DNA from: an uncultured Candidatus Saccharibacteria bacterium
GTDB lineage: Bacteria > Patescibacteriota > Doudnabacteria > UBA920
Assembly: GCA_964631145.1 (NCBI GenBank)
Contig: CAZVXT010000001.1
Location: 52,969 to 116,968, forward strand
DNA length: 64,000 nucleotides
Direction: 5' to 3'
Under the pieces are notes generated by a model. It ran no database searches and was not told where the DNA came from. It worked only from the letters and a program-made list of their open reading frames with translations. Position 1 is the stretch's first letter, and every line of letters starts with the position of its first letter. A program made the translations under genes and the position numbers. This document shows positions 6,865-56,507 of this stretch, one piece after another.

Positions 6865-7830
6865 ATGACGGAAGATTTTCTTCAAGCAAAAAATTTAATA
6901 GAAAACTCACAAAATATTTTATTTACGACCCACGAAAAAACAGACGGTGATGATTTTGGTTCAGTCTCAGCTATTGCACTTCATTGCCAAAATCAAGGTA
7001 AAAATATCACAATTTCAACAGCTGGCGGTTTCCCGAGCCAGCTTAACTTTTTAGCGCTCGCAAGCCAAACCCAAGATGATGTTAAAGAAGGAGACTATGA
7101 TCTTTTGGTGATATCTGGATGCTCTAATATTGAGCGTATACGAAACCCTTTTATAGAAACCTTAAACATTCCAAAAATAAATTTTGATCATCATCCAGAC
7201 AACCAAATGTATGGTGATGTCAATGTAGTAGATCCCAATAAATCTTCTGTTGCAGAACTAGTTTATGATTTTTTTAAATTTTGCAATTGGCAAATCACTC
7301 CAAAGATAGCTCAATCCTTGCTAACAGGAATTGTTACCGATACTGGAATTTTTATGCATAGCAACACAGGCGCTACAACATTAGAAGCTGCAGCTAACTT
7401 ATTAGAAAATGGTGCAATATTAAACGAAATAACGAAAAGTACTTACGAGAATAAAAGTGCTTTAAGCATGCAAGCATGGGCAAAAGCCTTACAAAATTCA
7501 TATCTTAACAAAAGCACCGGAGTAATATATTCCATACTAACAGAAAAAGATTTGGAAGAATTAGGTAACCCAGAACTAACTATTTTTGAAGGCGTAGTAG
7601 AGACACTAAATAAAGCTCCAGAAGCAAAATATGCCATGTTCTTAAAAGAAGAAAAGGGTCGCATCAAAGGAAGTCTTAGAAGCGATCCCCACAAAGGCAC
7701 TAATGTTCAAGAAATTGCCCAAAAACTAGGTGGTGGCGGACACAAATGGGCATCTGGATTCTCTTTATATGGAAAACTAGAAAAAAGTGCAGACGGTAAC
7801 TGGCAAATTATAAGCACAAAAAACAGCTAG
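6865..7830 (+). CDS. nrnA: DHH/DHHA1 phosphoesterase (NrnA-like nanoRNase/pAp phosphatase)
   Basis: Motifs HEKTDGDD, NFDHHPDN and GGGGHKWASG (DHH + DHHA1 GGGH). Confidence 0.85.
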   Translation: MTEDFLQAKNLIENSQNILFTTHEKTDGDDFGSVSAIALHCQNQGKNITISTAGGFPSQLNFLALASQTQDDVKEGDYDLLVISGCSNIERIRNPFIETLNIPKINFDHHPDNQMYGDVNVVDPNKSSVAELVYDFFKFCNWQITPKIAQSLLTGIVTDTGIFMHSNTGATTLEAAANLLENGAILNEITKSTYENKSALSMQAWAKALQNSYLNKSTGVIYSILTEKDLEELGNPELTIFEGVVETLNKAPEAKYAMFLKEEKGRIKGSLRSDPHKGTNVQEIAQKLGGGGHKWASGFSLYGKLEKSADGNWQIISTKNS

Positions 7831-7940: not shown

Positions 7941-8025
7941 GCTCGGGTGGCGGAATTGGTATACGCGTACGCTTGAGGTGCGTATGCCCTAGGGCTTGAG
8001 GGTTCGAGTCCCTCCTCGAGCACCA
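7941..8025 (+). tRNA. tRNA-Leu(GAG), type II with long variable arm
   Basis: Cloverleaf with anticodon loop TTGAGGT, T-arm GGTTCGAGTCC and 3' CCA. Confidence 0.85.
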
Positions 8026-8042
8026 GAGATAAAATACAATAA

Positions 8043-8062
8043 GGGCGATTAGCTCAGTTGGC
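8043..8062 (+). pseudogene. Orphan duplicate of the tRNA-Val 5' end (19-20 nt identical to the start of the downstream tRNA-Val); the tRNA-like sequence then degenerates
   Basis: GGGCGATTAGCTCAGTTGG repeated at 8043 and 8160; no T-arm or acceptor 3' half in the following ~100 nt. Confidence 0.5.
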
Positions 8063-8159
8063 GTAGGCGAGCTTTGCGAGCCGTTATTATAGACTCCCAA
8101 AACAAATTACAAATACAAGGAGCTGGAATTTATTTCAGCGACCAAAGAATATAAATTTA

Positions 8160-8236
8160 GGGCGATTAGCTCAGTTGGTTAGAGCGTCTCGTTTACACCG
8201 AGAAGGCCAAAGGTTCGAATCCTTTATCGCCCACCA
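8160..8236 (+). tRNA. tRNA-Val(TAC)
   Basis: Anticodon loop TTTACAC, T-arm GGTTCGAATCC, CCA end. Confidence 0.9.
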
Positions 8237-8251
8237 TAAAAATTACAATTA

Positions 8252-8326
8252 GCCCTGGTAGCTCAGTGGTAGAGCAGACGCCTGAAGAGCGTCGTGTCGT
8301 CAGTTCAATTCTGACCCGGGGCACCA
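8252..8326 (+). tRNA. tRNA-Phe(GAA)
   Basis: Anticodon loop CTGAAGA; cloverleaf; CCA end. Confidence 0.85.
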
Positions 8327-8337
8327 TAAAATATAAC

Positions 8338-8411
8338 GCGGCTATGGTTCAATGGTAGAATTCTTCCTTGCCAAGGAAGGGATAGGGGTTCGATTCCCCT
8401 TAGCCGCTCCA
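8338..8411 (+). tRNA. tRNA-Gly(GCC)
   Basis: Anticodon loop TTGCCAA, T-arm GGTTCGATTCC, CCA end. Confidence 0.9.
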
Positions 8412-10679: not shown

Positions 10680-10754
<75 letters not shown>

Positions 10755-10770
10755 CTAAAAACCAACCCGT

Positions 10771-10857
10771 GCCTGGGTGGCGGAACTGGTATACGCACAG
10801 GACTTAAAATCCTGGGCCCGAAAGGGATTGAGGGTTCGATTCCCTCCTCAGGCACCA
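10771..10857 (+). tRNA. tRNA-Leu(TAA), type II
   Basis: Anticodon loop CTTAAAA, long variable arm, T-arm GGTTCGATTCC, CCA end. Confidence 0.85.
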
Positions 10858-19295: not shown

Positions 19296-19372
19296 GCGCG
19301 TGTAGCTCAGTTGGTTAGAGCACAAAGCTTATACCTTTGCGGTCCCTGGTTCGAGTCCAGGCACGCGCACCA
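19296..19372 (+). tRNA. tRNA-Ile with UAU anticodon (reads AUA), preceded by the conserved 18-nt motif at 19230..19247
   Basis: Canonical cloverleaf; anticodon loop CTTATAC; T-arm GGTTCGAGTCC; CCA end. Confidence 0.75.
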
Positions 19373-23208: not shown

Positions 23209-26019
23209 ATGAAAATTTATAATTTTAACGGTACCGGGCAGGGTCATACCAAAAGCCGGTCATCAAAAATTTTAGGGAAAATATTATTTTACTTAAAAAC
23301 AGGTAATTGGTTTACTTGGGCTTTTAGAATTGCAGCTGCGGGTGTTTTGTTAGTTGCATTTTTATTTATCTATTATAGTAGAAGCTTACCTGATCCAAAT
23401 AGATTATTAGGTCGCAATGTTCCAGAGAGTACCAAGATTTATGCAGCAGATGGTAGCATGTTATACGAAGTTCATGGCGAAATTAAACGCACCCTAGTAA
23501 ACCTTGATCAAATTTCACCTGATCTAAAACACGCAACTATTGCAGCGGAAGATAAAAATTTTTACAAGCACGCAGGAGTGTCAGTTATGGGACTAGCAAG
23601 ATCGGTAATAGTAGATATAATCCATATGCAAAAAAAGCAAGGTGGAAGTACAATCACTCAACAATTTGTTAAAAATGCCGTATTAACTAGGGACAAATCT
23701 TTTACTAGAAAAATTAAAGAAATAATTATTGCAATAGAACTTGAAGCAAGGTTTTCAAAGGATGATATTCTCAAACTCTATTTAAATGAAATTCCTTATG
23801 GTCGAAATGCCTACGGTATTGAAGCAGCTAGCCAGACTTACTTTAACAAACATGCCAACGAGCTTAGCCTTGCCGAAAGTGCATACCTTGCTGCTTTACC
23901 TCAAGCACCAAGTTACTATAACCCAAGCGGTCCAAATTTTGACGCATTACAAGCAAGACAAAAAAATATCTTAAAGTTAATGGAAGAGGAAGGTTACATA
24001 ACCGCTGATCAACACGAACAAGCATTAAACGAAGAAGTAGCATTTCAAACTGTAAAAACAGCTATAGTTGCTCCTCACTTTGTACAATATGTAGAAGATT
24101 ATTTAGGACAAAAATATGGTGAAAGTACTCTTCAAGAAGGTGGTCTAAAAGTATATACAACTCTTGATCCAAAACTTCAAGCAATTGCAGAAAAAGCAGT
24201 AACAGACGGAGCGGCAAAAAATATCTCTGCTGGAGGTTATAACGCCGCATTGGTAGCAATGAATCCAAAAAATGGATACATATTAGCAATGGTTGGTAGT
24301 AAAGATTATTTCGGCGAATCTCAACCTAAAGGATGTGTTCCAGGAAAAAGCTGTTTATTTGAACCTAATGTTAACGTCGCAACAACATTACAGCAACCAG
24401 GAAGTAGCTTTAAACCTTACGCATACGTTACTGCTTTTGGACCAGACTTCAAATACTCTCCAGCTAGTATGTTAGTAGACGTTGTTACCAACTTTGGAGG
24501 AGGATACACTCCACAGAACTTTAACTTAGGTCAAAATGGACCAGTCTCTATGAGAAAAGCTTTAGCAGGAAGTTTGAACATCCCTGCTGTTAAAACAATC
24601 GCTCTAGTTGGTGCCGATAACGTAGTAAAGACTGCAAGAGATTTGGGTATAACCGCTCCTCTAAAAGATTGTGGTTTAGCGTTAGTTCTTGGTGGATGTG
24701 ATGTAAAATTAATCGATCACACTGCCGCTTATGCAACACTTGCAAACGGCGGAGTAAAAGTAGATAAAACAGCAATCTTAAAAGTTGAAAGTAAAGAAGG
24801 TCAAGTTTTAGAAGTACATGAAGAAAAGAAGACTCAAGTTTTGGATCCTCGAGCAGTTTATCAATTAATTGATATCATGACTGATAATTCTGCTAGAGCT
24901 TATGTATTTGGTGCTAATTCTGCATTAACCTTAAAAGATAGACTAGTGGCTGCAAAAACTGGTACAACTCAAGATTTTCGTGATGGATGGACCATGGGCT
25001 TTACCCCAAGCTTAGTAGCAGGAGTATGGACAGGAAACAATAATAACGCTCCTATGAAGCGTGATGCCGTACAAACCGCAGGTCCTATATGGAATCAATT
25101 TATGAGAGAAGCTCTAGCCGGAACACCAGTAGAAAAATTTGAAGAGCCAGAAGGTATTAAACACATAGCAGTAGATAGCGTTACCGGAAAGCTTCCAACT
25201 CAATATTCACCATCAACAAAAACAGAGACTTTTGCAGATTATAATGCACCGACAAAATATGATGACTTACATATTGGTATTAAAATCGATTCGTCTACAG
25301 GTCAGCCAGCGACAGATTCCACACCTGAAGAATTAATAGTTACAGAAATATACCAAGATTTACACAGTGAAAGACCAAAGGATCCTAATTGGGAAAATCC
25401 AGTTATTGCTTGGGCATTAGCAAATAGTTATAAATATCCGCCAGGTAGCGGTGTTAATAATAATCAAAGTCAAAATCAAACTAGTGTAAGCTTCGCTTCT
25501 CCACAAAATGATGCGATTATCAAACAACTACCTATCAGTATTAGTCTGGGAACACCACAAGATACAACTAAAGTAGAAATACTATTAGATAACCAGTTGG
25601 TAAAGACTTTAACATCAAGTCCTTATAACACCACTCTTGGACAAAGCATTGGTGATGGAAATCACACCTTAACAGCAAAAGCATATCTTCAAAGCGGGCA
25701 GACAGTAACTAGTAGTATAAATATAAAAGTAGCAATTACTGCAGACCTGGTAATAACAACCCCTGATTCTGGACTAACAGTACAATTTCCATTAACAATA
25801 GAAGCAGACAGCTCAACACTTTTTGGATCAGTAACATTTTGGTATCAAGGATCTAGTGGAAGTGCAAAGCAAATTGGTGCAGCTGAAATATCTGACATCG
25901 GAGGTAATTACAGATATTCAATTTCTTGGGATAGCCCGCCAAAATCTGGAAAGTACTCAGTATATGCAAAAAGTAATACTGGCGTAACTAGTAGTAAAAT
26001 ATCTATTACAGTTCCTTAA
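23209..26019 (+). CDS. Class A penicillin-binding protein (glycosyltransferase + transpeptidase) with a ~250-aa C-terminal Ig-like extension
   Basis: GT51 motifs (AAEDKNFYKHAGV, GGSTITQQ), transpeptidase SxxK/KTG (GSSFKP, KTGTT); TATAAT at -12..-7. Confidence 0.9.
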   Translation: MKIYNFNGTGQGHTKSRSSKILGKILFYLKTGNWFTWAFRIAAAGVLLVAFLFIYYSRSLPDPNRLLGRNVPESTKIYAADGSMLYEVHGEIKRTLVNLDQISPDLKHATIAAEDKNFYKHAGVSVMGLARSVIVDIIHMQKKQGGSTITQQFVKNAVLTRDKSFTRKIKEIIIAIELEARFSKDDILKLYLNEIPYGRNAYGIEAASQTYFNKHANELSLAESAYLAALPQAPSYYNPSGPNFDALQARQKNILKLMEEEGYITADQHEQALNEEVAFQTVKTAIVAPHFVQYVEDYLGQKYGESTLQEGGLKVYTTLDPKLQAIAEKAVTDGAAKNISAGGYNAALVAMNPKNGYILAMVGSKDYFGESQPKGCVPGKSCLFEPNVNVATTLQQPGSSFKPYAYVTAFGPDFKYSPASMLVDVVTNFGGGYTPQNFNLGQNGPVSMRKALAGSLNIPAVKTIALVGADNVVKTARDLGITAPLKDCGLALVLGGCDVKLIDHTAAYATLANGGVKVDKTAILKVESKEGQVLEVHEEKKTQVLDPRAVYQLIDIMTDNSARAYVFGANSALTLKDRLVAAKTGTTQDFRDGWTMGFTPSLVAGVWTGNNNNAPMKRDAVQTAGPIWNQFMREALAGTPVEKFEEPEGIKHIAVDSVTGKLPTQYSPSTKTETFADYNAPTKYDDLHIGIKIDSSTGQPATDSTPEELIVTEIYQDLHSERPKDPNWENPVIAWALANSYKYPPGSGVNNNQSQNQTSVSFASPQNDAIIKQLPISISLGTPQDTTKVEILLDNQLVKTLTSSPYNTTLGQSIGDGNHTLTAKAYLQSGQTVTSSINIKVAITADLVITTPDSGLTVQFPLTIEADSSTLFGSVTFWYQGSSGSAKQIGAAEISDIGGNYRYSISWDSPPKSGKYSVYAKSNTGVTSSKISITVP

Positions 26020-36100: not shown

Positions 36101-36500
36101 TTTGAAGATATATTTTTATTGTATTTTTTGGCAGATTATTAAAAATTTTATCCGCCCACTCTATTATTGTTATGGTTTCTTGCCTTCCCCATATTTCTGT
36201 TAATTCTAAGCTTTTTAAATCTGAAAAGTTTTTTAAACGGTAAATATCAAGGTGGTAAAACCATTTTGCATTAATCTTATCTTGCTTTGGGATTTTATAC
36301 CTCTGCATGATTACAAAAGTGGGGCTACTAATATTATTTTTGATTTTTAGGTTTTTGCCTAAATGTTTGGTAAAGGTCGTTTTGCCACTGCCTAAATTTC
36401 CAATCAAAGCTATAATTTCTCCACCCCGTAAATCTTTTGCAAAACTTTGGCAAAAAGATTCGATTTCTGAGAGTTTTATTCGGTAGGTTTTTTTCATCAT
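36084..36500 (-). CDS. tsaE: tRNA threonylcarbamoyladenosine biosynthesis ATPase TsaE
   Basis: ALIGNLGSGKTTFTK P-loop; 138 aa. Confidence 0.85.
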   Translation of the reverse strand: MMKKTYRIKLSEIESFCQSFAKDLRGGEIIALIGNLGSGKTTFTKHLGKNLKIKNNISSPTFVIMQRYKIPKQDKINAKWFYHLDIYRLKNFSDLKSLELTEIWGRQETITIIEWADKIFNNLPKNTIKIYLQNDIIK

Positions 36501-36586: not shown

Positions 36587-37726
36587 ATGAATCAAGACAT
36601 ATTATTACAAATCAATAAAAGCATTGAACAGTCTTCTTCCATTGGAATAGTATTACCTAGCTATGTAACAGTAGATATTTACGCTAGTAGTTTGGCTTTG
36701 CAAAACTGGTTAATTGGTATGGGAAAAACTGTTTTTTTGTATGGAGTGGGTAAGATTCCGCAGTATGAATTTTTTGATAACCCAGAAATACCTTTAGTAA
36801 ACTTTTCTGACAATAACCAACTCCAAATCAGTATTAGTAGTTTAAATGCTACTCCTAGCTCCTTGCGATATGAAAAAACAGAAAATGGCTTAACTGTTTA
36901 TATTAATATTAAAGACGGGCAGATTAAATCTGATGATGTAGTTGTAACTCCTCCAGCTCTAAACCCTGATTTATTATTTTTATTAGACGGAGCTGATTAT
37001 GAAGCATTTGGAGATTTTTATAAAAAAAACGTTGCTGTTATTACAACCACAAAAAAAATTAGCTTAAGCACTAATCCTTCTCATAATTATTTTGCAGCAA
37101 TAAACTTTGTTAATACAGAAGTTTCAAGTTTGAGCGAGCTGGTTTATGATTTAATTGATAGCAAAAATGTTGGTGAATTTAGCGAGCGTGTAGCGACTAA
37201 TTTATTAGCAGGGATAATTTCTCAGACACAAAGTTATAGAAGTAGTAAAACTAATCCTCAAACTTTAAATAAATCTGCAAAACTTATTAGAGCAGGTGCG
37301 CGTCAGCAAGACATTATAAAAGATTTATACAAAACTAAACCTTATAATTTTTTGCAGCTATGGGGAAGAGCTTTAGCAAGAGTTGTGTATTATACAGAAA
37401 ATAATTTTTTGCAAACCACTTTAACAAAACAAGATTTTATAAAAACTTCATTAACTACGCAGGTTATACCTCAAGTTTTGATTGATCTGATAGAAATGTC
37501 TAGTGGTTTTAATATCTTTGCTCTTGTTGTTGAACAGGATTCTGGTGTTAATTTGTATTTAGCAAGTTTGCCTCATGTAAACTTACAAAAATATTTTAAA
37601 GCTTTTGATATAGATTCTGATACAGAACTTTTGCCATTATTTGGTAATTATATTTATACTAGCTTTTTGATTCCCGATTTAGAACTCGCTACTGTAGAGC
37701 AAACTTTAGCAAAAATTAGCTTTTAA
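36587..37726 (+). CDS. Catalytically degenerate DHH/NrnA paralog (pseudo-enzyme)
   Basis: Collinear similarity to the nrnA-like gene at 6865 (SLSELVYDLI vs SVAELVYDFF; ATNLLAGIISQTQ vs AQSLLTGIVTDTG), but the DxD, DHH and GGGH motifs are all absent. Confidence 0.55.
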   Translation: MNQDILLQINKSIEQSSSIGIVLPSYVTVDIYASSLALQNWLIGMGKTVFLYGVGKIPQYEFFDNPEIPLVNFSDNNQLQISISSLNATPSSLRYEKTENGLTVYINIKDGQIKSDDVVVTPPALNPDLLFLLDGADYEAFGDFYKKNVAVITTTKKISLSTNPSHNYFAAINFVNTEVSSLSELVYDLIDSKNVGEFSERVATNLLAGIISQTQSYRSSKTNPQTLNKSAKLIRAGARQQDIIKDLYKTKPYNFLQLWGRALARVVYYTENNFLQTTLTKQDFIKTSLTTQVIPQVLIDLIEMSSGFNIFALVVEQDSGVNLYLASLPHVNLQKYFKAFDIDSDTELLPLFGNYIYTSFLIPDLELATVEQTLAKISF

Positions 37727-42904: not shown

Positions 42905-43894
42905 ATGGATACAGGAGAAATAATAATTTATAAAGATAATAGTGGTCCTCAAATTGAGGTAAATTTTGTTGATGATACTATATGGCTCACCCAGTCGCAG
43001 ATGGCTGATCTGTTTGGTAAAGACATTAGAACTATCTCTGAACATATCAAAAATATCTTTAAAACCGGGGAATTAGCAAAAGATTCAGTTATCCGGAATT
43101 TCCGGATAACTGCAAAAGATGGTAAAAACTATAATACGGCACATTACAATTTAGATATGATAATTTCTGTAGGATATAGAGTTAATTCTAAGCGCGGTAC
43201 TCAGTTTCGTATTTGGGCTACTTCAAAAATTCGAGATTTTTTACTAAAAGGTTATGTAGTAAATAAAAACGTTTTGCAATCTGGTGCTCTTGCAAAAGTT
43301 AAAGAGTTAGAGGGGGCGGTTAGGTTGATTCAATTAGCAATACAAAATAAAAAATTAGAAGGATATGAAAAGGAGGTTTTAGATATTATTACAGATTATG
43401 CTGCAACTTGGACTTTACTATATCAGTACGATGAACAAAAGCTACAACCAGAGCATGTGGTAAAGAAGGTAACTAGAAAATTAGATTATGAACAAGTTAC
43501 AAAATCTATTGATAAATTTCGAGACCGATTACTAAAAGATAAACAGGCTAGCAAGTTATTTGGAAAAGAACAAGATGGTAAGCTCCAGGCATTGTTAGGA
43601 AATATAGAGCAAACTTATGACGGCAAGTCTGTGTATGAAGGTTTTGAACAAAAGGCTGCTCATTTATTATACTTTGCAATTAAGGATCATCCTTTTGCAG
43701 ACGGTAATAAACGAATTGGTTCTTTATTATTTATTTTATACTTAGTAGAAAATGATCGCATTTATAACAAGCGAGGCGATAGAATAATTAATGACAATGC
43801 ATTAACAGCAATTGCATTATTAATTGCAGAAAGTAGTCCCAGTGAAAAAAGCACAATGGTTAATTTAGTGGCAAGTTTGATTGCAAAAAAATAA
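42905..43894 (+). CDS. RhuM-family N-terminal domain fused to a Doc/Fic (death-on-curing type) C-terminal domain
   Basis: C-terminal HPFADGNKRIGS matches the Doc variant of the Fic motif HxFx(D)GNKR; the N-terminal ~200 aa resemble virulence-protein RhuM-family proteins. Confidence 0.7.
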   Translation: MDTGEIIIYKDNSGPQIEVNFVDDTIWLTQSQMADLFGKDIRTISEHIKNIFKTGELAKDSVIRNFRITAKDGKNYNTAHYNLDMIISVGYRVNSKRGTQFRIWATSKIRDFLLKGYVVNKNVLQSGALAKVKELEGAVRLIQLAIQNKKLEGYEKEVLDIITDYAATWTLLYQYDEQKLQPEHVVKKVTRKLDYEQVTKSIDKFRDRLLKDKQASKLFGKEQDGKLQALLGNIEQTYDGKSVYEGFEQKAAHLLYFAIKDHPFADGNKRIGSLLFILYLVENDRIYNKRGDRIINDNALTAIALLIAESSPSEKSTMVNLVASLIAKK

Positions 43895-43990: not shown

Positions 43991-44527
43991 ATGCTAGAGC
44001 AAATTCAAGACAATAAAGATCTGCTTTTGGTTGATTACAACATCAAGCCATTTGTCCCAGAAGGATGGTATTTTTATAAACCTGTCACCAAACTCGGTGT
44101 TTATGTTTATAGAATGCAAGATTTTATCATTATTCCGGCAATGAATTTTAAAATCAATAATGAAGATAAAATTAATTACCGGAAATTTCGTGAACGGTTT
44201 GAAGAGTCGCAATTAATATCGCCTGATGTGAGAGTTATGGAAGAAATGATTAAGCAAAAATCTAATTTATTGCCTCTGTCTTGGTTTAAATTAGATATGC
44301 ACTATCATTTTTTAGAAACTTTATATGGCGTTCCTCATGGTGAAAGAATGCGAAGGTATATGTGTTGGGGGTATGCTAGGTGGGCTGTAGAATATCGTTA
44401 TCATCCAAGACAAATTCTAAAATGGCGTTCCGATTATTCGTTTGGCGAAAGCCCCTTCGGTGAAAATGACTTTATTGTAATTTTAAAACAAGATGCTGTT
44501 ATTGAATATATAGATAAGTTAGATTAA
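43991..44527 (+). CDS. Hypothetical protein downstream of the RhuM–Doc gene (own promoter, perfect SD)
   Basis: 178 aa; TTAGGAGGAAATATG; Trp/Tyr/Arg-rich C-terminal half; no recognisable domain. Confidence 0.5.
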   Translation: MLEQIQDNKDLLLVDYNIKPFVPEGWYFYKPVTKLGVYVYRMQDFIIIPAMNFKINNEDKINYRKFRERFEESQLISPDVRVMEEMIKQKSNLLPLSWFKLDMHYHFLETLYGVPHGERMRRYMCWGYARWAVEYRYHPRQILKWRSDYSFGESPFGENDFIVILKQDAVIEYIDKLD

Positions 44528-44564
44528 ACTAAATATCATAGATATTTTAAATTAAATATTTTTA

Positions 44565-44592
44565 ACAAAAACACCCAATTAAGGGTGTTTAA
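44565..44592. terminator. Bidirectional terminator shared with rpsT
   Basis: AAAAACACCCAATTAAGGGTGTTTAATTTTG. Confidence 0.65.
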
Positions 44593-44599
44593 TTTTGTT

Positions 44600-44869
44600 C
44601 TATTTAGCAGAAAGTTTGTTTAAAGCTTTTGCAAGTCTAGATTTTTTGCGAGAAGCAGTATTTTTGTGAATTACATTCTTCTTTGCAGCTTTATCTAAAG
44701 CAGACATTGCTTTCTTTAAATCTTCCGCAGCAGTTTTGCTGTCTCCAGTTGTTATGCTTTTGCGTGCTACTTTTACCGCATCTTTAGTTTTGAACTTGGT
44801 GCGAGTATTAATAGTGTTGCGGCGTCTAGATTGACGCATTGCCTTTTGGGCAGACTTGGTATTTGGCAT
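44600..44869 (-). CDS. rpsT: 30S ribosomal protein S20
   Basis: MPNTKSAQKAMRQSRRRNTINTRTKF... is the canonical S20 N-terminus. Confidence 0.9.
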   Translation of the reverse strand: MPNTKSAQKAMRQSRRRNTINTRTKFKTKDAVKVARKSITTGDSKTAAEDLKKAMSALDKAAKKNVIHKNTASRKKSRLAKALNKLSAK

Positions 44870-45071
44870 TGAAGGTTATTATTTGATTTAAGTTTGTAAT
44901 TAAGCAATTGATTCCTTATCTGTTTTTAGACACGGCAGAAAGGAAAAATCTTTAGTTATTATACCGACAAACAATAGAAAAATCAAGTCACTGTCTTTTT
45001 AATATATAGTTGACTCAAGAGCATTTTTTAGTTAAAATGATTAGAAAATTTAAATAGGAGGAAATTTTATA

Positions 45072-45827
45072 ATGAATAGTAATAAAAGCGAAGCTTTGCA
45101 AGTTGATAATGTTCAGAATAACCTAAAAGCAAAAATTGCAATTCAGGCGTGCGAACAATTGGGTTTTACTGGGTATCTTAGGTATTTTCAAGAAAATAAA
45201 CAAGCTTTGACAAAAGATTTAAACGAAGTAAGTTTAAGTTCGGTTTTAGGTAACGTAGGAATAAATTTTTATCCTGAACAAGCCTTTAATAGAATTATTG
45301 ATGAATATTTTTGGGCTAATTTTAGTAAAGGTAAATTTAATTTATGGTTGCATAACTTAGAAATTAATCACTGGGTAAAATTGTATTTTTCTATATTTTT
45401 ATTATTTTACTCTATATCGTATTATACTCTTCATTCTTATGTATGGGGTAATAATACACCCGCTTGTATTTTGATGTCGTTAATTATTTCATTTTTTGCT
45501 TTTGCCGCAATTAAGGATTTGGTTTTAAATCCAAGAGAAGAAAAAGTAGAAAAGCTAAAAATTAAAAAATCAGATTTAAGTAAAACTAGCCTAGATGTAA
45601 ACCCAGAATTTATTACCATGGCGTTGCAAATTAAATCGTTTGACTCAACTGCGAAATTTAATATTTGCTATTATTATAAAGATTGGGGTATTGATTCAAA
45701 TAAACCTCAATGGCTAGAAGTAACTAATGCTTCTGGAGAAAAGTGTTATATTCCTGAACACGAAGGTGATTGGCAAAATTATTGTGACCTACCTTCATCT
45801 AGTGAACAAGTATTAAATTATTTATAG
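45072..45827 (+). CDS. Novel membrane protein, paralog A of a tandem pair
   Basis: 251 aa; N-terminal soluble domain with ACEQLGFTGYLRYFQENKQ; central TM helices; C-terminal domain MALQIKSFDSTAKFNICYYY; own promoter TTGACT-17-TAAAAT, AGGAGGAA SD and terminator. Confidence 0.55.
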   Translation: MNSNKSEALQVDNVQNNLKAKIAIQACEQLGFTGYLRYFQENKQALTKDLNEVSLSSVLGNVGINFYPEQAFNRIIDEYFWANFSKGKFNLWLHNLEINHWVKLYFSIFLLFYSISYYTLHSYVWGNNTPACILMSLIISFFAFAAIKDLVLNPREEKVEKLKIKKSDLSKTSLDVNPEFITMALQIKSFDSTAKFNICYYYKDWGIDSNKPQWLEVTNASGEKCYIPEHEGDWQNYCDLPSSSEQVLNYL

Positions 45828-45917
45828 TCGACAAGTTCGACTATTTTTTTATTTTCATAGTCTTTACATGACTATTTATAAATGTTAATATTTATAGAAT
45901 TTAAAAAGGAGGAATAT

Positions 45918-46607
45918 ATGAAAACAGATTTAGATTTATTAGATTATAAAAAAACTTTAGCAAAAGAAGCTGCTAATAAGCTTGGATTTAGAGGGTATTT
46001 GCCTCAAGGTAACCAACAAGTTGTTAAGCAAAATTACCCTGAAATTCCATTAATGCCATTACTAACTCAATATGGATTTCCGGTTTATGACCAATGTTTT
46101 TTTAATAATAGAGCCAACCAAATTTTTGAAGAAAATTTAGAACAGGCGGGGTTATTAAAAAAGTATAATTTTAGAAATAAGGTCCAAATAACTTTTAACA
46201 AATGGTTTGTCTTATATCCTTTTTTAATAATAGTTTGTGGACTAGAGTTGTTTTTTGCTTATTTAGTTATAACAACTAACTACGAATCATTGGGAGCGGT
46301 ATGTATGTTATCAGGTATAGTGTTTTTGTTTGTATTGATGATAGTGTTAATGAGATTTGCATTGTTTTTATCCGGAAAAAACTTTCAACACCGTTTTCAT
46401 TCGATGGATCTTAAAAGTTTGAAAAACGACTGGGTTCATCCTATTGTGATTGAAATGGCATTGAAGATTTTTGACCAAGACAATTCTGCTAAATTTGAAG
46501 TTGGATATTTTCTTGACGAAGCACAAAAGCCTGCGAGTCAAAATCAATTTTTGGTAGTTCAGAATTATTATTCCGGTGATCAGAAATATTATATGAAGAT
46601 CACTTAA
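45918..46607 (+). CDS. Novel membrane protein, paralog B of the tandem pair
   Basis: Homologous motifs AANKLGFRGYLPQGNQQ and MALKIFDQDNSAKFEVGYFL; start set at the ATG at 45918 after AAGGAGGAATAT; own terminator at 46609-46641. Confidence 0.55.
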   Translation: MKTDLDLLDYKKTLAKEAANKLGFRGYLPQGNQQVVKQNYPEIPLMPLLTQYGFPVYDQCFFNNRANQIFEENLEQAGLLKKYNFRNKVQITFNKWFVLYPFLIIVCGLELFFAYLVITTNYESLGAVCMLSGIVFLFVLMIVLMRFALFLSGKNFQHRFHSMDLKSLKNDWVHPIVIEMALKIFDQDNSAKFEVGYFLDEAQKPASQNQFLVVQNYYSGDQKYYMKIT

Positions 46608-46656
46608 CAAAAAAGCACTGCATTAATTAGCAGTGCTATTTTATTTACAAAAATTA

Positions 46657-48723
46657 TTACCCCTTCTTTTTTAATTTTTGAATTTTTTTAACTTCGCCAA
46701 TCCTGTCACGTAAGGTAGCGGCGAGTTCAAATTCCAAATTTTGAGCAGCGAGTTCCATTTGGGCTTCTAGTTCATCAATATAAAGTTTTGATTCTTTGCT
46801 GTCCAGCTTGGTGATATCAATAGCTGTATCTGTATTTCCATCAGGCAGGCTTTCTTTACTTCCTGCAAGTCTGCTTTCTGCAATCTTTTTTTGAATGCTC
46901 ACAGGTGTGATACCGTTTGCATTATTATACTCTTCTTGAATTTTTCTGCGTCTTGTTGTTTCATCTATTGCTGCTTTCATGGATTTGGTAATTCGATCGG
47001 CATACATTATTACATGTCCATTCAAATGCCTAGCTGCTCGACCCATAATTTGCATAAACGATGTTTCGCTTCTCAAAAAGCCTTCTTTATCTGCATCCAA
47101 AATTGCTACTAAAGAAACTTCTGGTAAGTCCAGTCCTTCACGTAGAAGATTGATCCCAATTAAACAGTCATAAATTCCTAAACGTAGGTCTCTTAAAATT
47201 TCTAACCTTTCAAATGTATCAACCTCGCTATGAAGATATTGTGCTTTTATACCAGCTTCATTGATATAGGTTGATAATTCTTCTGCCATGCGTTTGGATA
47301 ATGTGGTAACCAAAACACGTTCGTGGTTTTTAATCCGCTCTTTAATTTGCTCTAGGAGGTGATCAACTTGGTTTTTGATTGGACGAATTTCTATGGTTGG
47401 ATCTAGTAACCCTGTCGGACGGTTTATTTGTTGTGCAATAACTGTTTTGGCTAGCTTGTCTGCATCTTTAAAATCATTTTTAGATTGCTTTTTTTTGCCT
47501 ATAATCAAATTTTCTTCAATACACTTTCTTGCTTCATATGGACCTGGTGTTGCAGAGACATACACAGCTTGATTTATCTTGCCTTCAAATTCAGTAAATT
47601 TAAGTGGGCGATTATCCATGGCGCTTGGTAATCGGAATCCGTATTCTACTAATGTTGATTTGCGACTTTTATCGCCTTCGTACATAGCACCGATTTGAGG
47701 AATGGTTTGGTGGGATTCATCGATAAATAGTAAAAAGTCATCAGGGAAATAATCGAGAAGGGTGGATGGAGGGTCTCCAGGTGCTCTTCCGTCAAGGTGT
47801 CTTGAGTAGTTTTCTATACCTGCGACAAAGCCTGTATTATTTAAAATTTCTAAATCGTAATTTGTACGTTGTTCTAATCTTGCAGCTTCTAAAATTTTTC
47901 CATCTTTGCGAAGTTGATTTAGTCTTAGCCTTAATTCTGTGCGTATTGCTTCCATCGCGGATTTCACTTTTTCTTCTGGGGTTACGAAATGTTTGGCTGG
48001 AAAGATTTTAATAGCTTTAAGTTTTTCTAGCAATTCTCCAGAGACCATATGTAATCTTTCAATTTCTTCTAACTCGTCACCAAAAAACTTTAATCTTATA
48101 ATTGTGTCTTCAGAAGCAAGGACGATTTCTAATGTATCTCCTTGTGCTCTAAAAGTTCCGCGCTTTAGATCGTAATCATTGCGGGCATATTGCAAATCAG
48201 TTAAGCGTCTAAGTAGTTTATCTCTTTTGTATGTTTGTCCTGCGGTTAATTCCATGGATAGCTCTAAGTAGTTATCTGGATTGCCTAGTCCGTAGATGCA
48301 AGAGACTGATGCAACAATTAACACATCGCTTCGACTCATTAAAGAGGTTGTCGCTGCGTTGCGAAGCCTATCAATCTCTTCATTAATTTGTGTTTCTTTT
48401 TCTATAAAAGTATCACTACGGGGAATGTATGCTTCCGGTTGATAATAATCATAGTAGGAGACAAAATAATGTACTGCGTTGTCAGGGAAAAATTCTTGAA
48501 ACTCACTAGCTAGCTGCGCTGCTAAAGTTTTGTTGTGACACATTATCAAAGTTGGTTTTTGGATTTTCTCTACAACGCTGGCCATGGTAAAAGTTTTACC
48601 GCTACCTGTAACTCCAAGTAGGGTTTGATGTTTGTATCCAGACTCCAGAGAGTTAACCAAAGTGCTGATTGCTTTTGGTTGGTCTCCTGCTGGGGCAAAT
48701 TTGCTTTTCATCTTAAACTTCAT
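46657..48723 (-). CDS. uvrB: Excinuclease ABC subunit B
   Basis: Walker [13 protein letters not shown], helicase motifs, C-terminal UvrB/UvrC interaction helix. Confidence 0.95.
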
Positions 48724-48756: not shown

Positions 48757-48782
48757 ATAAAAACTGACCTATTTGGTCAGTT
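48757..48782 (-). terminator. Terminator of the small-protein operon
   Basis: AACTGACCTATTTGGTCAGTT hairpin (8-bp stem). Confidence 0.55.
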
Positions 48783-49070
48783 GGTAATTAGAACAATAAT
48801 GCCTAAGTGTTTGCGAGCTATTTGCTCGGCTAATAATATAAGATTATGGTCTGGTGGACAGCCGATAATAATTAAATTTGGGCTTCCTGTATTCTTTACT
48901 GATTCTTCTGGTAAATAAAATTCTGGGATTTTAAAATCAAGTTTTGGTTCTTGATGTTTATTAGCGTCAGAATTTTTATGAGGAAGCCATTTATCGTTTT
49001 TGCCAAATCTCATATTTGTTCTAGATTTGTTAAAATGTTTTGTATTTTTAAAGTTTTGCCTTCTATACAT
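48777..49070 (-). CDS. Hypothetical small basic protein (third gene of a 3-gene accessory operon)
   Basis: 97 aa; N-terminus MYRRQNFKNTKHF shares the RRQNF motif and a 15-nt DNA repeat with the upstream micro-ORF; start overlaps the upstream stop (TAAAATG); GAGGAGG SD. Confidence 0.45.
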   Translation of the reverse strand: MYRRQNFKNTKHFNKSRTNMRFGKNDKWLPHKNSDANKHQEPKLDFKIPEFYLPEESVKNTGSPNLIIIGCPPDHNLILLAEQIARKHLGIIVLITN

Positions 49071-49281: not shown

Positions 49282-49758
49282 TTAATCTTTAATTATTGAA
49301 ACAGCTTTGGTCTTTCTAACTTGGCTTGGTGCGGTTGCCCATAAAATTACTCCAACGATTTGCAGCACTAATGCTGTAATTAACCATATTTGATAAAAAG
49401 CATTAGGATTCCATAATTTTCCGTATGAAATAAATAACGATATTGCTACTGGTATTACCGCAAAAATATCACAGATGGTTAAATACAATTTGTCATATTT
49501 TAGTTTTGTTCTAAAAATTTCCCAAGGGTCAGATTTTTGTTCAAGAAATTTTCCTAAACGATGAACCATTGTATCTAGTCTGATAATAGAGCCAACAAAA
49601 GCTAATCCAAAAACAATATTCCAACCCGAGAAATAATTATTGTTAAAGATCTCAGCGGTAATGCATAAACCCACACATATTAATCCCAAGACGAAAGCCA
49701 AAATTTTGTGAAATAAGTCATTCACAATAATTTCTAATCTATAACTATTATTTTCCAT
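49282..49758 (-). CDS. Hypothetical 4-TM membrane protein (first gene of the small-protein operon)
   Basis: 158 aa; TAGGAGGATTTATG. Confidence 0.5.
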   Translation of the reverse strand: MENNSYRLEIIVNDLFHKILAFVLGLICVGLCITAEIFNNNYFSGWNIVFGLAFVGSIIRLDTMVHRLGKFLEQKSDPWEIFRTKLKYDKLYLTICDIFAVIPVAISLFISYGKLWNPNAFYQIWLITALVLQIVGVILWATAPSQVRKTKAVSIIKD

Positions 49759-55946: not shown

Positions 55947-56507
55947 TTATATTTTCCCAATTAGTTTTAACGCTTCTTTAATTTGCTCTCCGGTATCAAC
56001 AGTTGTATCGATTTTACCAATAACTTCTCGTACTTCTCGAGGATTGTAGCCAAGAGAAATTAATGCATCAAATAAGTCACTGCTTGGTCCAGAAGTAGAT
56101 TGAAGAATATTGCCAGACATTTTATTTTTAAGTTCTAAAATAATTCTTTCGGCAGTTTTTTTACCTACCCCGGACATGCGAGTAAATATATCGCTATCGC
56201 CAGAAAGAATAGCTTGTTCTAACATATCTAATTTACCAGCAGAGATAATGGTAAGAGCCATCTTTGGTCCAACCCCTGTGACAGTTAGGAGCAATTCAAA
56301 AAATTGTAAGCTAGTAAAATCGCTCATACCAAATAAAGTTTGACCGTCATCGCTGGATTTATGGTAAATATATAAAGAAATATTTGAACCAGCTGTTTGA
56401 TCTAAAATCTCTGGAGTTGTAAAAATTTTATAACCAACTCCGTTATTTACCAATATGATAAATTGAGCAGTTTTTTGTAAGATTTTTCCTTCAAGATAAC
56501 TAATCAT
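55947..56507 (-). CDS. ruvA: Holliday junction DNA helicase subunit RuvA
   Basis: MISYLEGKI...; HhH motifs (GVGPKMALTIIS, GVGKKTAERIILEL); 186 aa. Confidence 0.9.
   Translation of the reverse strand: MISYLEGKILQKTAQFIILVNNGVGYKIFTTPEILDQTAGSNISLYIYHKSSDDGQTLFGMSDFTSLQFFELLLTVTGVGPKMALTIISAGKLDMLEQAILSGDSDIFTRMSGVGKKTAERIILELKNKMSGNILQSTSGPSSDLFDALISLGYNPREVREVIGKIDTTVDTGEQIKEALKLIGKI

Follow-up and report, generated by a model that had tools for sequence, protein, structure and literature searches.

Comparison with described membrane proteins

The YdbS/YdbT proteins, which carry bPH domains (PF03703), are hairpin-anchored bacterial membrane proteins with cytoplasmic domains, and they provide a lead, and only a lead, for two adjacent genes of uncharacterised function located between rpsT and uvrB in a 64,000-nucleotide stretch of DNA (the window; GC content 33%). 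The likeness consists of an adjacent pair of transmembrane (TM) helices, a very short outside loop and a small soluble domain on the cytoplasmic face, the last two as predicted for our pair, and YdbS/YdbT are themselves mostly uncharacterised. By contrast, the pair lacks a Pfam match to bPH, has an added helical N domain of 95 amino acids (aa) ahead of the hairpin, and has a C domain that is modelled, with moderate confidence, as beta-alpha-beta-beta-beta and not as a PH-like sandwich followed by a C-terminal helix.

Class II holins and, more broadly, small two-TM membrane proteins of phages or of abortive infection are comparable in their N-in/C-in hairpin (predicted for the pair), rapid turnover and orphan status. 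However, the proteins of the pair are 229-251 aa long, of which about 170 aa belong to conserved soluble domains, as opposed to 65-95 aa in class II holins, there are no endolysin or phage genes near the pair and no PHROG or viral match, and conservation within the family is lowest in the TM helices. The best Pfam score was a weak one to SUR7/PalI (PF06687) over the hydrophobic region of the second gene, gene B (residues 85-155; E 6.6e-4, 19.8 bits, below the gathering cut-off of 29.6). SUR7 proteins, however, are four-TM eukaryotic proteins, the match was seen in one of three family members and covered the TM helices only, and we took it as compositional noise.

In CPR/Patescibacteria genomes, lineage-specific hypothetical membrane or secreted proteins occupy variable slots, and many such orphans are to be expected; the host-dependent biology of these bacteria is mostly encoded by uncharacterised orphan envelope proteins. 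The pair resembles these slot-filling orphans in being small, Pfam-less, envelope-associated and clade-restricted, and similar genes fill the same slot in relatives, although such orphans are a descriptive class and not a homologous family. On present evidence, the pair consists of ordinary orphan genes and does not represent a new kind of system. We favor, with a probability of about 0.5, the reading that the pair belongs to an orphan, fast-evolving, clade-restricted family of accessory membrane proteins that was tandem-duplicated in the window lineage. Were a function to be found, the already large collection of uncharacterised CPR/Patescibacteria envelope proteins would gain one small family.

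The gene pair and its expression signals

Both open reading frames (ORFs), described by the sequence-only reading as a tandem pair of paralogous membrane proteins, are present on the same strand, and an independent gene caller run on the public contigs gave identical product sizes of 251 and 229 aa. The features of the locus are as follows.

42905-43894, RhuM/Fic gene (PADLOC match); orf178 and rpsT lie between it and the pair
44600-44869, minus strand, rpsT (Pfam Ribosomal_S20p)
45010-45038, plus strand, candidate sigma-70-like promoter of gene A, TTGACT-17-TAAAAT, 10/12 matches, in the 202-bp divergent region common with rpsT
45056-45063, plus strand, Shine-Dalgarno (SD) sequence of gene A, AGGAGGAA, 8 nt 5' of the ATG
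45072-45827, plus strand, gene A (P0001), 251 aa (ORF, BLASTP, gene caller, hydropathy, shuffles)
45072-45371, plus strand, gene A N domain, aa 1-100
45372-45527, plus strand, gene A TM hairpin, aa 101-152
45528-45824, plus strand, gene A C domain, aa 153-251
45824-45851, plus strand, intrinsic-terminator-like hairpin after gene A, 8-bp stem overlapping the stop codon, with a T7 run
45863-45891, plus strand, candidate promoter of gene B, TTTACA-17-TAATAT with an upstream TG, 9/12 matches, consensus match only
45907-45914, plus strand, SD sequence of gene B, AGGAGGAA
45918-46607, plus strand, gene B (P0002), 229 aa (ORF, BLASTP, gene caller, hydropathy, shuffles)
45918-46202, plus strand, gene B N domain, aa 1-95
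46203-46367, plus strand, gene B TM hairpin, aa 96-150
46368-46604, plus strand, gene B C domain, aa 151-229
46614-46645, bidirectional terminator, common to gene B (plus) and the convergent uvrB (minus), with its hairpin at 46614-46637
46657-48723, minus strand, uvrB (Pfam label)

The open reading frame of gene B reaches further upstream, to an in-frame ATG at 45882, but the start is likely the ATG at 45918, because the SD sequence lies 3 nt upstream of it. The peptides quoted in the sequence-only reading, ACEQLGFTGYLRYFQENKQ / AANKLGFRGYLPQGNQQ and MALQIKSFDSTAKFNICYYY / MALKIFDQDNSAKFEVGYFL, were all found in the translations. Over positions 44001-47000, the window is matched at 100% identity by two Logan contigs (two sequencing runs), which thus show no strain variation; for dN/dS or covariation analysis, the family amounts to three sequences, with the window copies invariant between contigs. 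Apart from the RhuM/Fic gene, the remaining neighbours of the pair are core genes.

The two genes had also been described as independent expression units, each with its own promoter, SD sequence and terminator. Promoter-like boxes, SD sequences and terminator hairpins were indeed found, but this AT-rich stretch has no significant excess of promoter-like sites over shuffled sequence (17, versus 12.4 +/- 3.5), and the promoters of genes A and B are plausible but candidate only, because shuffles yield similar numbers of sites. The hairpin after gene A (45824-45844) has a predicted stability of -8.4 kcal/mol (z -4.1; none of 200 shuffles equally stable), which is weak in absolute terms, and the bidirectional hairpin reaches -14.5 kcal/mol on the plus strand and -19.0 kcal/mol on the minus strand (z about -4.5 on both). 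As judged from these signals, genes A and B are likely separate transcription units, and read-through from A into B is possible because the terminator after gene A is weak.

A three-member family conserved in its soluble domains

Pairwise alignment bore out the proposed paralogy, with 27% identity and 47% positives between genes A and B over 221 aa (BLASTP E 7e-13); no further tandem paralogue pair occurs in the window. Searches beyond the window returned a single additional member. A word-indexed search of 5.8 billion clustered proteins with A, B and a three-sequence profile gave self matches and one other protein, P0003, and HMMER, run exhaustively with a profile on 1.84 billion representatives, recovered P0003 (236 aa, E 3.8e-14) together with P0004. 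The latter (1202 aa) was rejected as spurious, being a low-complexity tandem-repeat translation that was matched in seven short stretches, as was a weak HMM match to an ORF on contig L070 (2632-3216, minus strand), in which the hydrophobic hairpin alone was covered, pointing to composition. Nothing was found by back-translated pattern scans of GTDB species genomes, JGI metagenome contigs (two scans) and IMG/VR, or by tblastn against phage and plasmid records, and no paper turned up when the literature was searched for the run and assembly accessions.

No family match was obtained when the full proteins and their isolated domains were scanned against Pfam, NCBIfam, PHROGs and PADLOC, in agreement with the sequence-only reading, which had recognised no known domain. 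Gene A had no match in Pfam or NCBIfam, gene B reached 13.4 bits against MAG0920_fam (cut-off 43), P0003 reached 17.4 bits against CLN6 (cut-off 27), and the domain-only scans gave no match common to the members. The best E-values were 0.023 to 0.084 in PADLOC-DB 2.0, from single members and to unrelated models (Csx19, PDC-M40B, ZorB), and 0.056 in PHROGs, from a single member. P0001, P0002 and P0003 all share architecture, motifs, location between rpsT and uvrB, and an orientation antisense to both flanking genes. They constitute a new sequence family outside any described family, and there is no sign of a new kind of system.

Since two hydrophobic helices might inflate an alignment score, the N, TM and C parts were scored separately against 1000 shuffles.

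A and B: N domains z 10.6, TM region z -0.2, C domains z 10.1
A and P0003: N domains z 8.4, TM region z -0.2, C domains z 13.6
B and P0003: N domains z 7.5, TM region z -1.0, C domains z 15.1

The family resemblance is confined to the two soluble domains, and the hairpin keeps its hydrophobicity only. With TM scores near zero and soluble-domain scores of 7.5-15, the paralogy is therefore not an artefact of hydrophobic composition, and the hairpin, having no sequence similarity, therefore looks like an anchor. The statement that each part is similar between the two proteins thus holds for the N and C domains, but not for the TM region. All three members share the motif A..LG[FY].GY in the N domain (about 95 aa, helical) and the motifs NP..I..AL.I...D...KF and Q...V.N.SG...Y in the C domain (about 75-95 aa, alpha/beta). 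The C-domain motifs can also be written NPE.I..AL.I...D...KF ... Q.L.V.N.SGE..Y. The three proteins are about equidistant from each other, so that their distances give no date for the duplication.

AF2 models were built from two to three sequences, are of low to moderate confidence, and give domain folds that are provisional. The gene A model was poor (pLDDT 51), and the gene B model, from three sequences, was better (pLDDT 69.5, pTM 0.57). The latter starts with four predicted helices, continues with an unbroken TM hairpin (residues 99-151) and ends in a C domain whose predicted order is beta(160-164)-alpha(175-187)-beta(191-199)-beta(205-216)-beta(222-226). When a profile was compared with PDB sequences, no E-value was better than 0.46, and Foldseek searches with the gene B model gave no significant match in PDB (best E 0.56, SnoaL-like, probability 0.23) or in BFVD (best E 0.1, probability 0.44). 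These searches give the family no fold assignment. Across the Pfam, NCBIfam, PDB and fold searches, there was no confident match to a characterised housekeeping family.

A variable accessory slot between rpsT and uvrB

P0003 is encoded on a 2.1-kb metagenome contig (L003) in the order Fic, rpsT (minus), P0003 (plus) and uvrB (minus), matching the window in slot and orientation. It has its own expression signals, including TTGACA-17-TATTTT with an upstream TG, AGGAGG and a terminator. Between the window and L003, identities are 75% for UvrB (C-terminal part), 79% for S20 and 84% for Fic (C-terminal part), whereas P0003 is 25-26% identical to the window copies, and the range over all pairs of family members is 25-27%. 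The family therefore diverges far faster than its neighbours.

A scan with UvrB identified about 17 related genomes (UvrB 60-79% identical), whose records are labelled as Candidatus Saccharibacteria, Doudnabacteria or Patescibacteria. The gene order abcP-abcA-uvrB-[gap]-rpsT-(fic)-polA is kept in all of them. The gap between rpsT and uvrB, however, ranges from 92 to 2927 bp and varies in content.

L004, L005 and L009, with a fragment in L007: a 224-258-aa signal-peptide protein ending ...C.GHCDT..GRHR
L008, L010, L011, L012 and L046: 53-109-aa TM peptides ending SKRH, SKRY or LRSP
L013: a 163-aa multi-TM protein
L032: a 134-aa N-anchored protein
L015: a 344-aa multi-TM ORF
L006, L014, L016 and L017: slot empty

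These other occupants have no sequence in common with the family. The pair had been placed in an otherwise core-gene context; the flanking genes rpsT and uvrB are as described, but the gap between them is a clade-variable accessory slot, usable as a marker when accessory envelope genes are compared within the lineage. Copy number, proposed earlier as a check, does vary: two in the window, one in L003 as the sole other carrier, and none in the about 17 relatives.

In a neighbour-joining tree of the UvrB C-terminal part and S20, the window and L003 are weakly supported sisters, and genomes with the same slot occupant mostly cluster together, L005 being an exception. The GC content of the family genes (28.7% and 30.1% in the 33% genome; 39% for P0003 in a 42% contig) tracks that of each host at a slightly lower level, and therefore suggests long residence rather than recent transfer. 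These observations are consistent with a single gain in the common ancestor of the window and L003, after which the gene stayed for a long time, diverged quickly and was duplicated on the window side; alternatively, L003 may have lost one of two copies.

The slot also bears on a possible part of the proteins in a conflict system, the immunity-type option of the sequence-only reading. As membrane effectors, or as components that confer immunity (in anti-phage abortive infection, superinfection exclusion or protection from a toxin), they would sense a trigger with their cytoplasmic domains and perturb the membrane with the hairpin. The RhuM/Fic gene, 1.2 kb from the pair, matches the PADLOC candidate defence gene PDC-S23 over its full length (E 4e-118) and also a Doc-like toxin PHROG, and both family-carrying genomes have this Fic gene, but so do five relatives without the family. 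A variable, island-like slot, fast evolution and a candidate promoter for each gene would suit such a role. On the other hand, no PADLOC or PHROG model was matched, the pair has no neighbouring gene for a cyclase, nuclease, NTPase or sensor partner, and phage, plasmid and viral-contig collections contain no relatives. In addition, the sequence of the TM helices is not conserved, which is unexpected in a pore-forming effector, and the ameliorated GC content and apparently vertical inheritance do not favour a conflict role. We therefore consider this explanation unlikely. As a point against our favoured reading, a conflict-related role would also be in keeping with the combination of fast divergence, accessory slot and nearby PDC-S23 candidate. 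A bolder version, which we regard as quite unlikely, is that the three proteins represent a hitherto unseen, fast-evolving family of cytoplasmic sensors or effectors tethered to the membrane. Ultra-small Patescibacteria would employ them in conflict or symbiosis, for example in immunity against phages or related to the host, working with the adjacent RhuM/Fic gene (PDC-S23), and the tandem copies would supply two specificities.

Predicted membrane topology and its implications

Hydropathy places the TM helices at about 101-122 and 130-152 in gene A and at about 96-118 and 126-150 in gene B, separated by a 7-residue loop that is non-conserved and almost uncharged. The first TM helix of A is weakly hydrophobic (Kyte-Doolittle 1.19) and aligns with clearly hydrophobic helices of B and P0003. 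The hairpin status of A comes from this alignment and from a low-confidence AF2 helix. None of the three members has a signal-peptide-like segment, and their N-termini are hydrophilic. Lysine plus arginine residues were counted within 15 residues of the hairpin and in the loop.

A: 8 in the flanks, 0 in the loop
B: 7 in the flanks, 0 in the loop
P0003: 9 in the flanks, 1 in the loop

The positive-inside rule is established knowledge for assigning topology, and the assignment here follows from this rule rather than from a dedicated predictor. Since the N-termini offer no evident signal peptide, lysine and arginine abound on both sides of the hairpin and the loop carries almost no charge, the proteins are probably N-in/C-in, with both conserved domains in the cytoplasm and almost nothing exposed.

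This prediction does not support the view of the sequence-only reading that the pair encodes surface proteins. Such proteins, lying N-out/C-out in an epibiotic bacterium, would diversify for host interaction or as receptors. Patescibacteria are generally considered host-attached, and the rapid divergence relative to UvrB, S20 and Fic in the same two genomes, the secreted or membrane nature of the slot's other occupants in relatives, and the differing copy number among genomes are what might be expected of surface proteins. However, an N-out/C-out arrangement would require a charged N domain of 95-100 aa to cross the membrane without a signal peptide, and the distribution of lysine and arginine is the opposite of what it predicts. 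Moreover, conserved cysteines are absent, and the sole part predicted to be exposed is the short non-conserved loop. A surface role is thus very unlikely. With the conserved domains predicted to lie on the cytoplasmic side, the two proteins should not be counted as candidate adhesins or receptors. The chief value of the analysis lies in correcting the surface-protein reading and in recognising that accessory content varies in the gap between rpsT and uvrB.

If the pair indeed belongs to an orphan accessory membrane protein family, a gene residing in the clade-variable slot of a small-genome Patescibacteria lineage would encode N and C domains tethered to the cytoplasmic face of the inner membrane by two poorly conserved TM helices and their short outside loop. 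The hairpin would be an anchor only, with function residing in the two cytoplasmic domains, which may form a membrane-proximal binding or adaptor module whose partner may itself be lineage-specific. Each copy would be transcribed from its own promoter and translated from a strong SD leader, and the two copies might either be subfunctionalised or act as a heteromer. The data show the paralogy, the architecture, the expression signals, the rarity of the family, its variable slot and its fast divergence, whereas we infer the topology (by the positive-inside rule), the hairpin's role as an anchor and an adaptor function.

It is highly improbable that the ORFs are accessory DNA in decay or without function, whether spurious or pseudogenised, in a junk-tolerant slot, as might be suggested by there being three sequences worldwide, by their extreme divergence, by the slot being empty in four relatives and by a family GC content below that of the neighbours, since all three ORFs are intact, architecture and motifs have been kept although TM similarity is erased, perfect SD sequences, promoter-like boxes and terminators occur in both genomes, and genomes of such small size generally lose non-functional DNA. 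Motifs kept at such low identity, intact ORFs and strong SD sequences argue instead for functional constraint on the accessory family. Perfect SD sequences are not peculiar to the pair, as AGGAGG is found ahead of about 13-15 of the 58 long ORFs in the window, and AGGAGG or GGAGG ahead of 15 of them.

Variable gene content around rpsT and uvrB

In related loci, we found other genes in the rpsT-uvrB slot that houses genes A and B. One group of relatives carries here a protein of 224-258 aa that has a signal-like helix at its N-terminus and is conserved at its C-terminal end (...LLT[IL]CQ.GHCDT..GRHR). This protein has no relation to the family under study (P0001 and P0002, the products of genes A and B, and P0003 on the 2.1-kb metagenome contig L003). 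In another subclade, the slot is occupied by a TM peptide of 53-109 aa, three of the five examples ending in ...GLSKRH or ...SLSKRH; these genes downstream of uvrB may encode a conserved small membrane peptide.

Other occupants of the rpsT-uvrB slot in related loci
L004 8238-8969, +, 224-258-aa slot protein
L005 8354-9028, +, 224-258-aa slot protein
L009 8162-8938, +, 224-258-aa slot protein
L007 10393-10686, +, fragment of the 224-258-aa slot protein
L011 8172-8333, +, TM peptide
L012 5688-5849, +, TM peptide
L046 8115-8276, +, TM peptide
L008 8071-8268, +, TM peptide
L010 7982-8311, +, TM peptide

The polA-rpsT interval is a second variable slot, filled in the window by a RhuM/Fic (Doc-like) gene. 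Its product matches, along its full length, both PDC-S23, a phage-defence candidate of PADLOC (E 4e-118), and PHROG 577, a Doc-like toxin. This gene is present in L003, L007, L009, L013, L014, and L032, and missing from L004, L005, L010-L012, and L046. Between it and rpsT lies orf178, preceded by a perfect AGGAGG, for which scans of Pfam, PADLOC, and PHROG gave no match and about 18 related loci, including L003, held no counterpart. orf178 is apparently a further orphan and may be connected with the Fic gene.

A third variable slot, between uvrB and the ABC transporter, contains orf97, without a counterpart among the related loci, and orf158, a multi-TM protein with a perfect Shine-Dalgarno (SD) sequence, whose counterparts (34-41% identical) are limited to L007, L008, and L012.

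Genes of the second and third slots in the window
42905-43894, +, RhuM/Fic (Doc-like) gene
43991-44527, +, orf178 (178 aa)
48777-49070, -, orf97
49282-49758, -, orf158

Other paralogues and RNA genes

Besides genes A and B, the window holds a single paralogue pair, 25% identical across 174 aa (E 6e-14), whose members are not neighbours. One adjoins a T2SSE/PilB-type ATPase gene, and its product had no match in a Pfam scan. The Rfam scan identified seven tRNA genes, four of them clustered, and no other family at or above the gathering score in the window.

Paralogue and tRNA genes in the window
6865-7830, +, paralogue
36587-37726, +, paralogue adjoining the ATPase gene
7941-8408, +, cluster of four tRNA genes
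10680-10854 and 19296-19369, +, the other three tRNA genes

Two apparent classes of translation start

Translation starts across the window appear to fall into two classes. AGGAGG or GGAGG occurs within 25 nt of the start in only 15 of the 58 long ORFs, 13 of which lack a Pfam family, the remaining two being NT5C and HD; the core genes polA, uvrB, rpoB, the ABC transporter, and rpsT have no SD. A TATAAT-like box (5/6 matches or better) with its 3' end 6-13 nt upstream of the start codon was found in 13 of the 43 SD-less ORFs, five of these boxes being perfect, versus none of the 15 SD-bearing ORFs. The proximity of these boxes to SD-less starts, and their absence from SD-bearing ones, suggests that a large part of the core genome is expressed from leaderless mRNAs.

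Example starts given for the two classes
uvrB, 48723, -
abcA, 49838
polA, 39984
start at 23209
start at 36500, -
start at 56507, -
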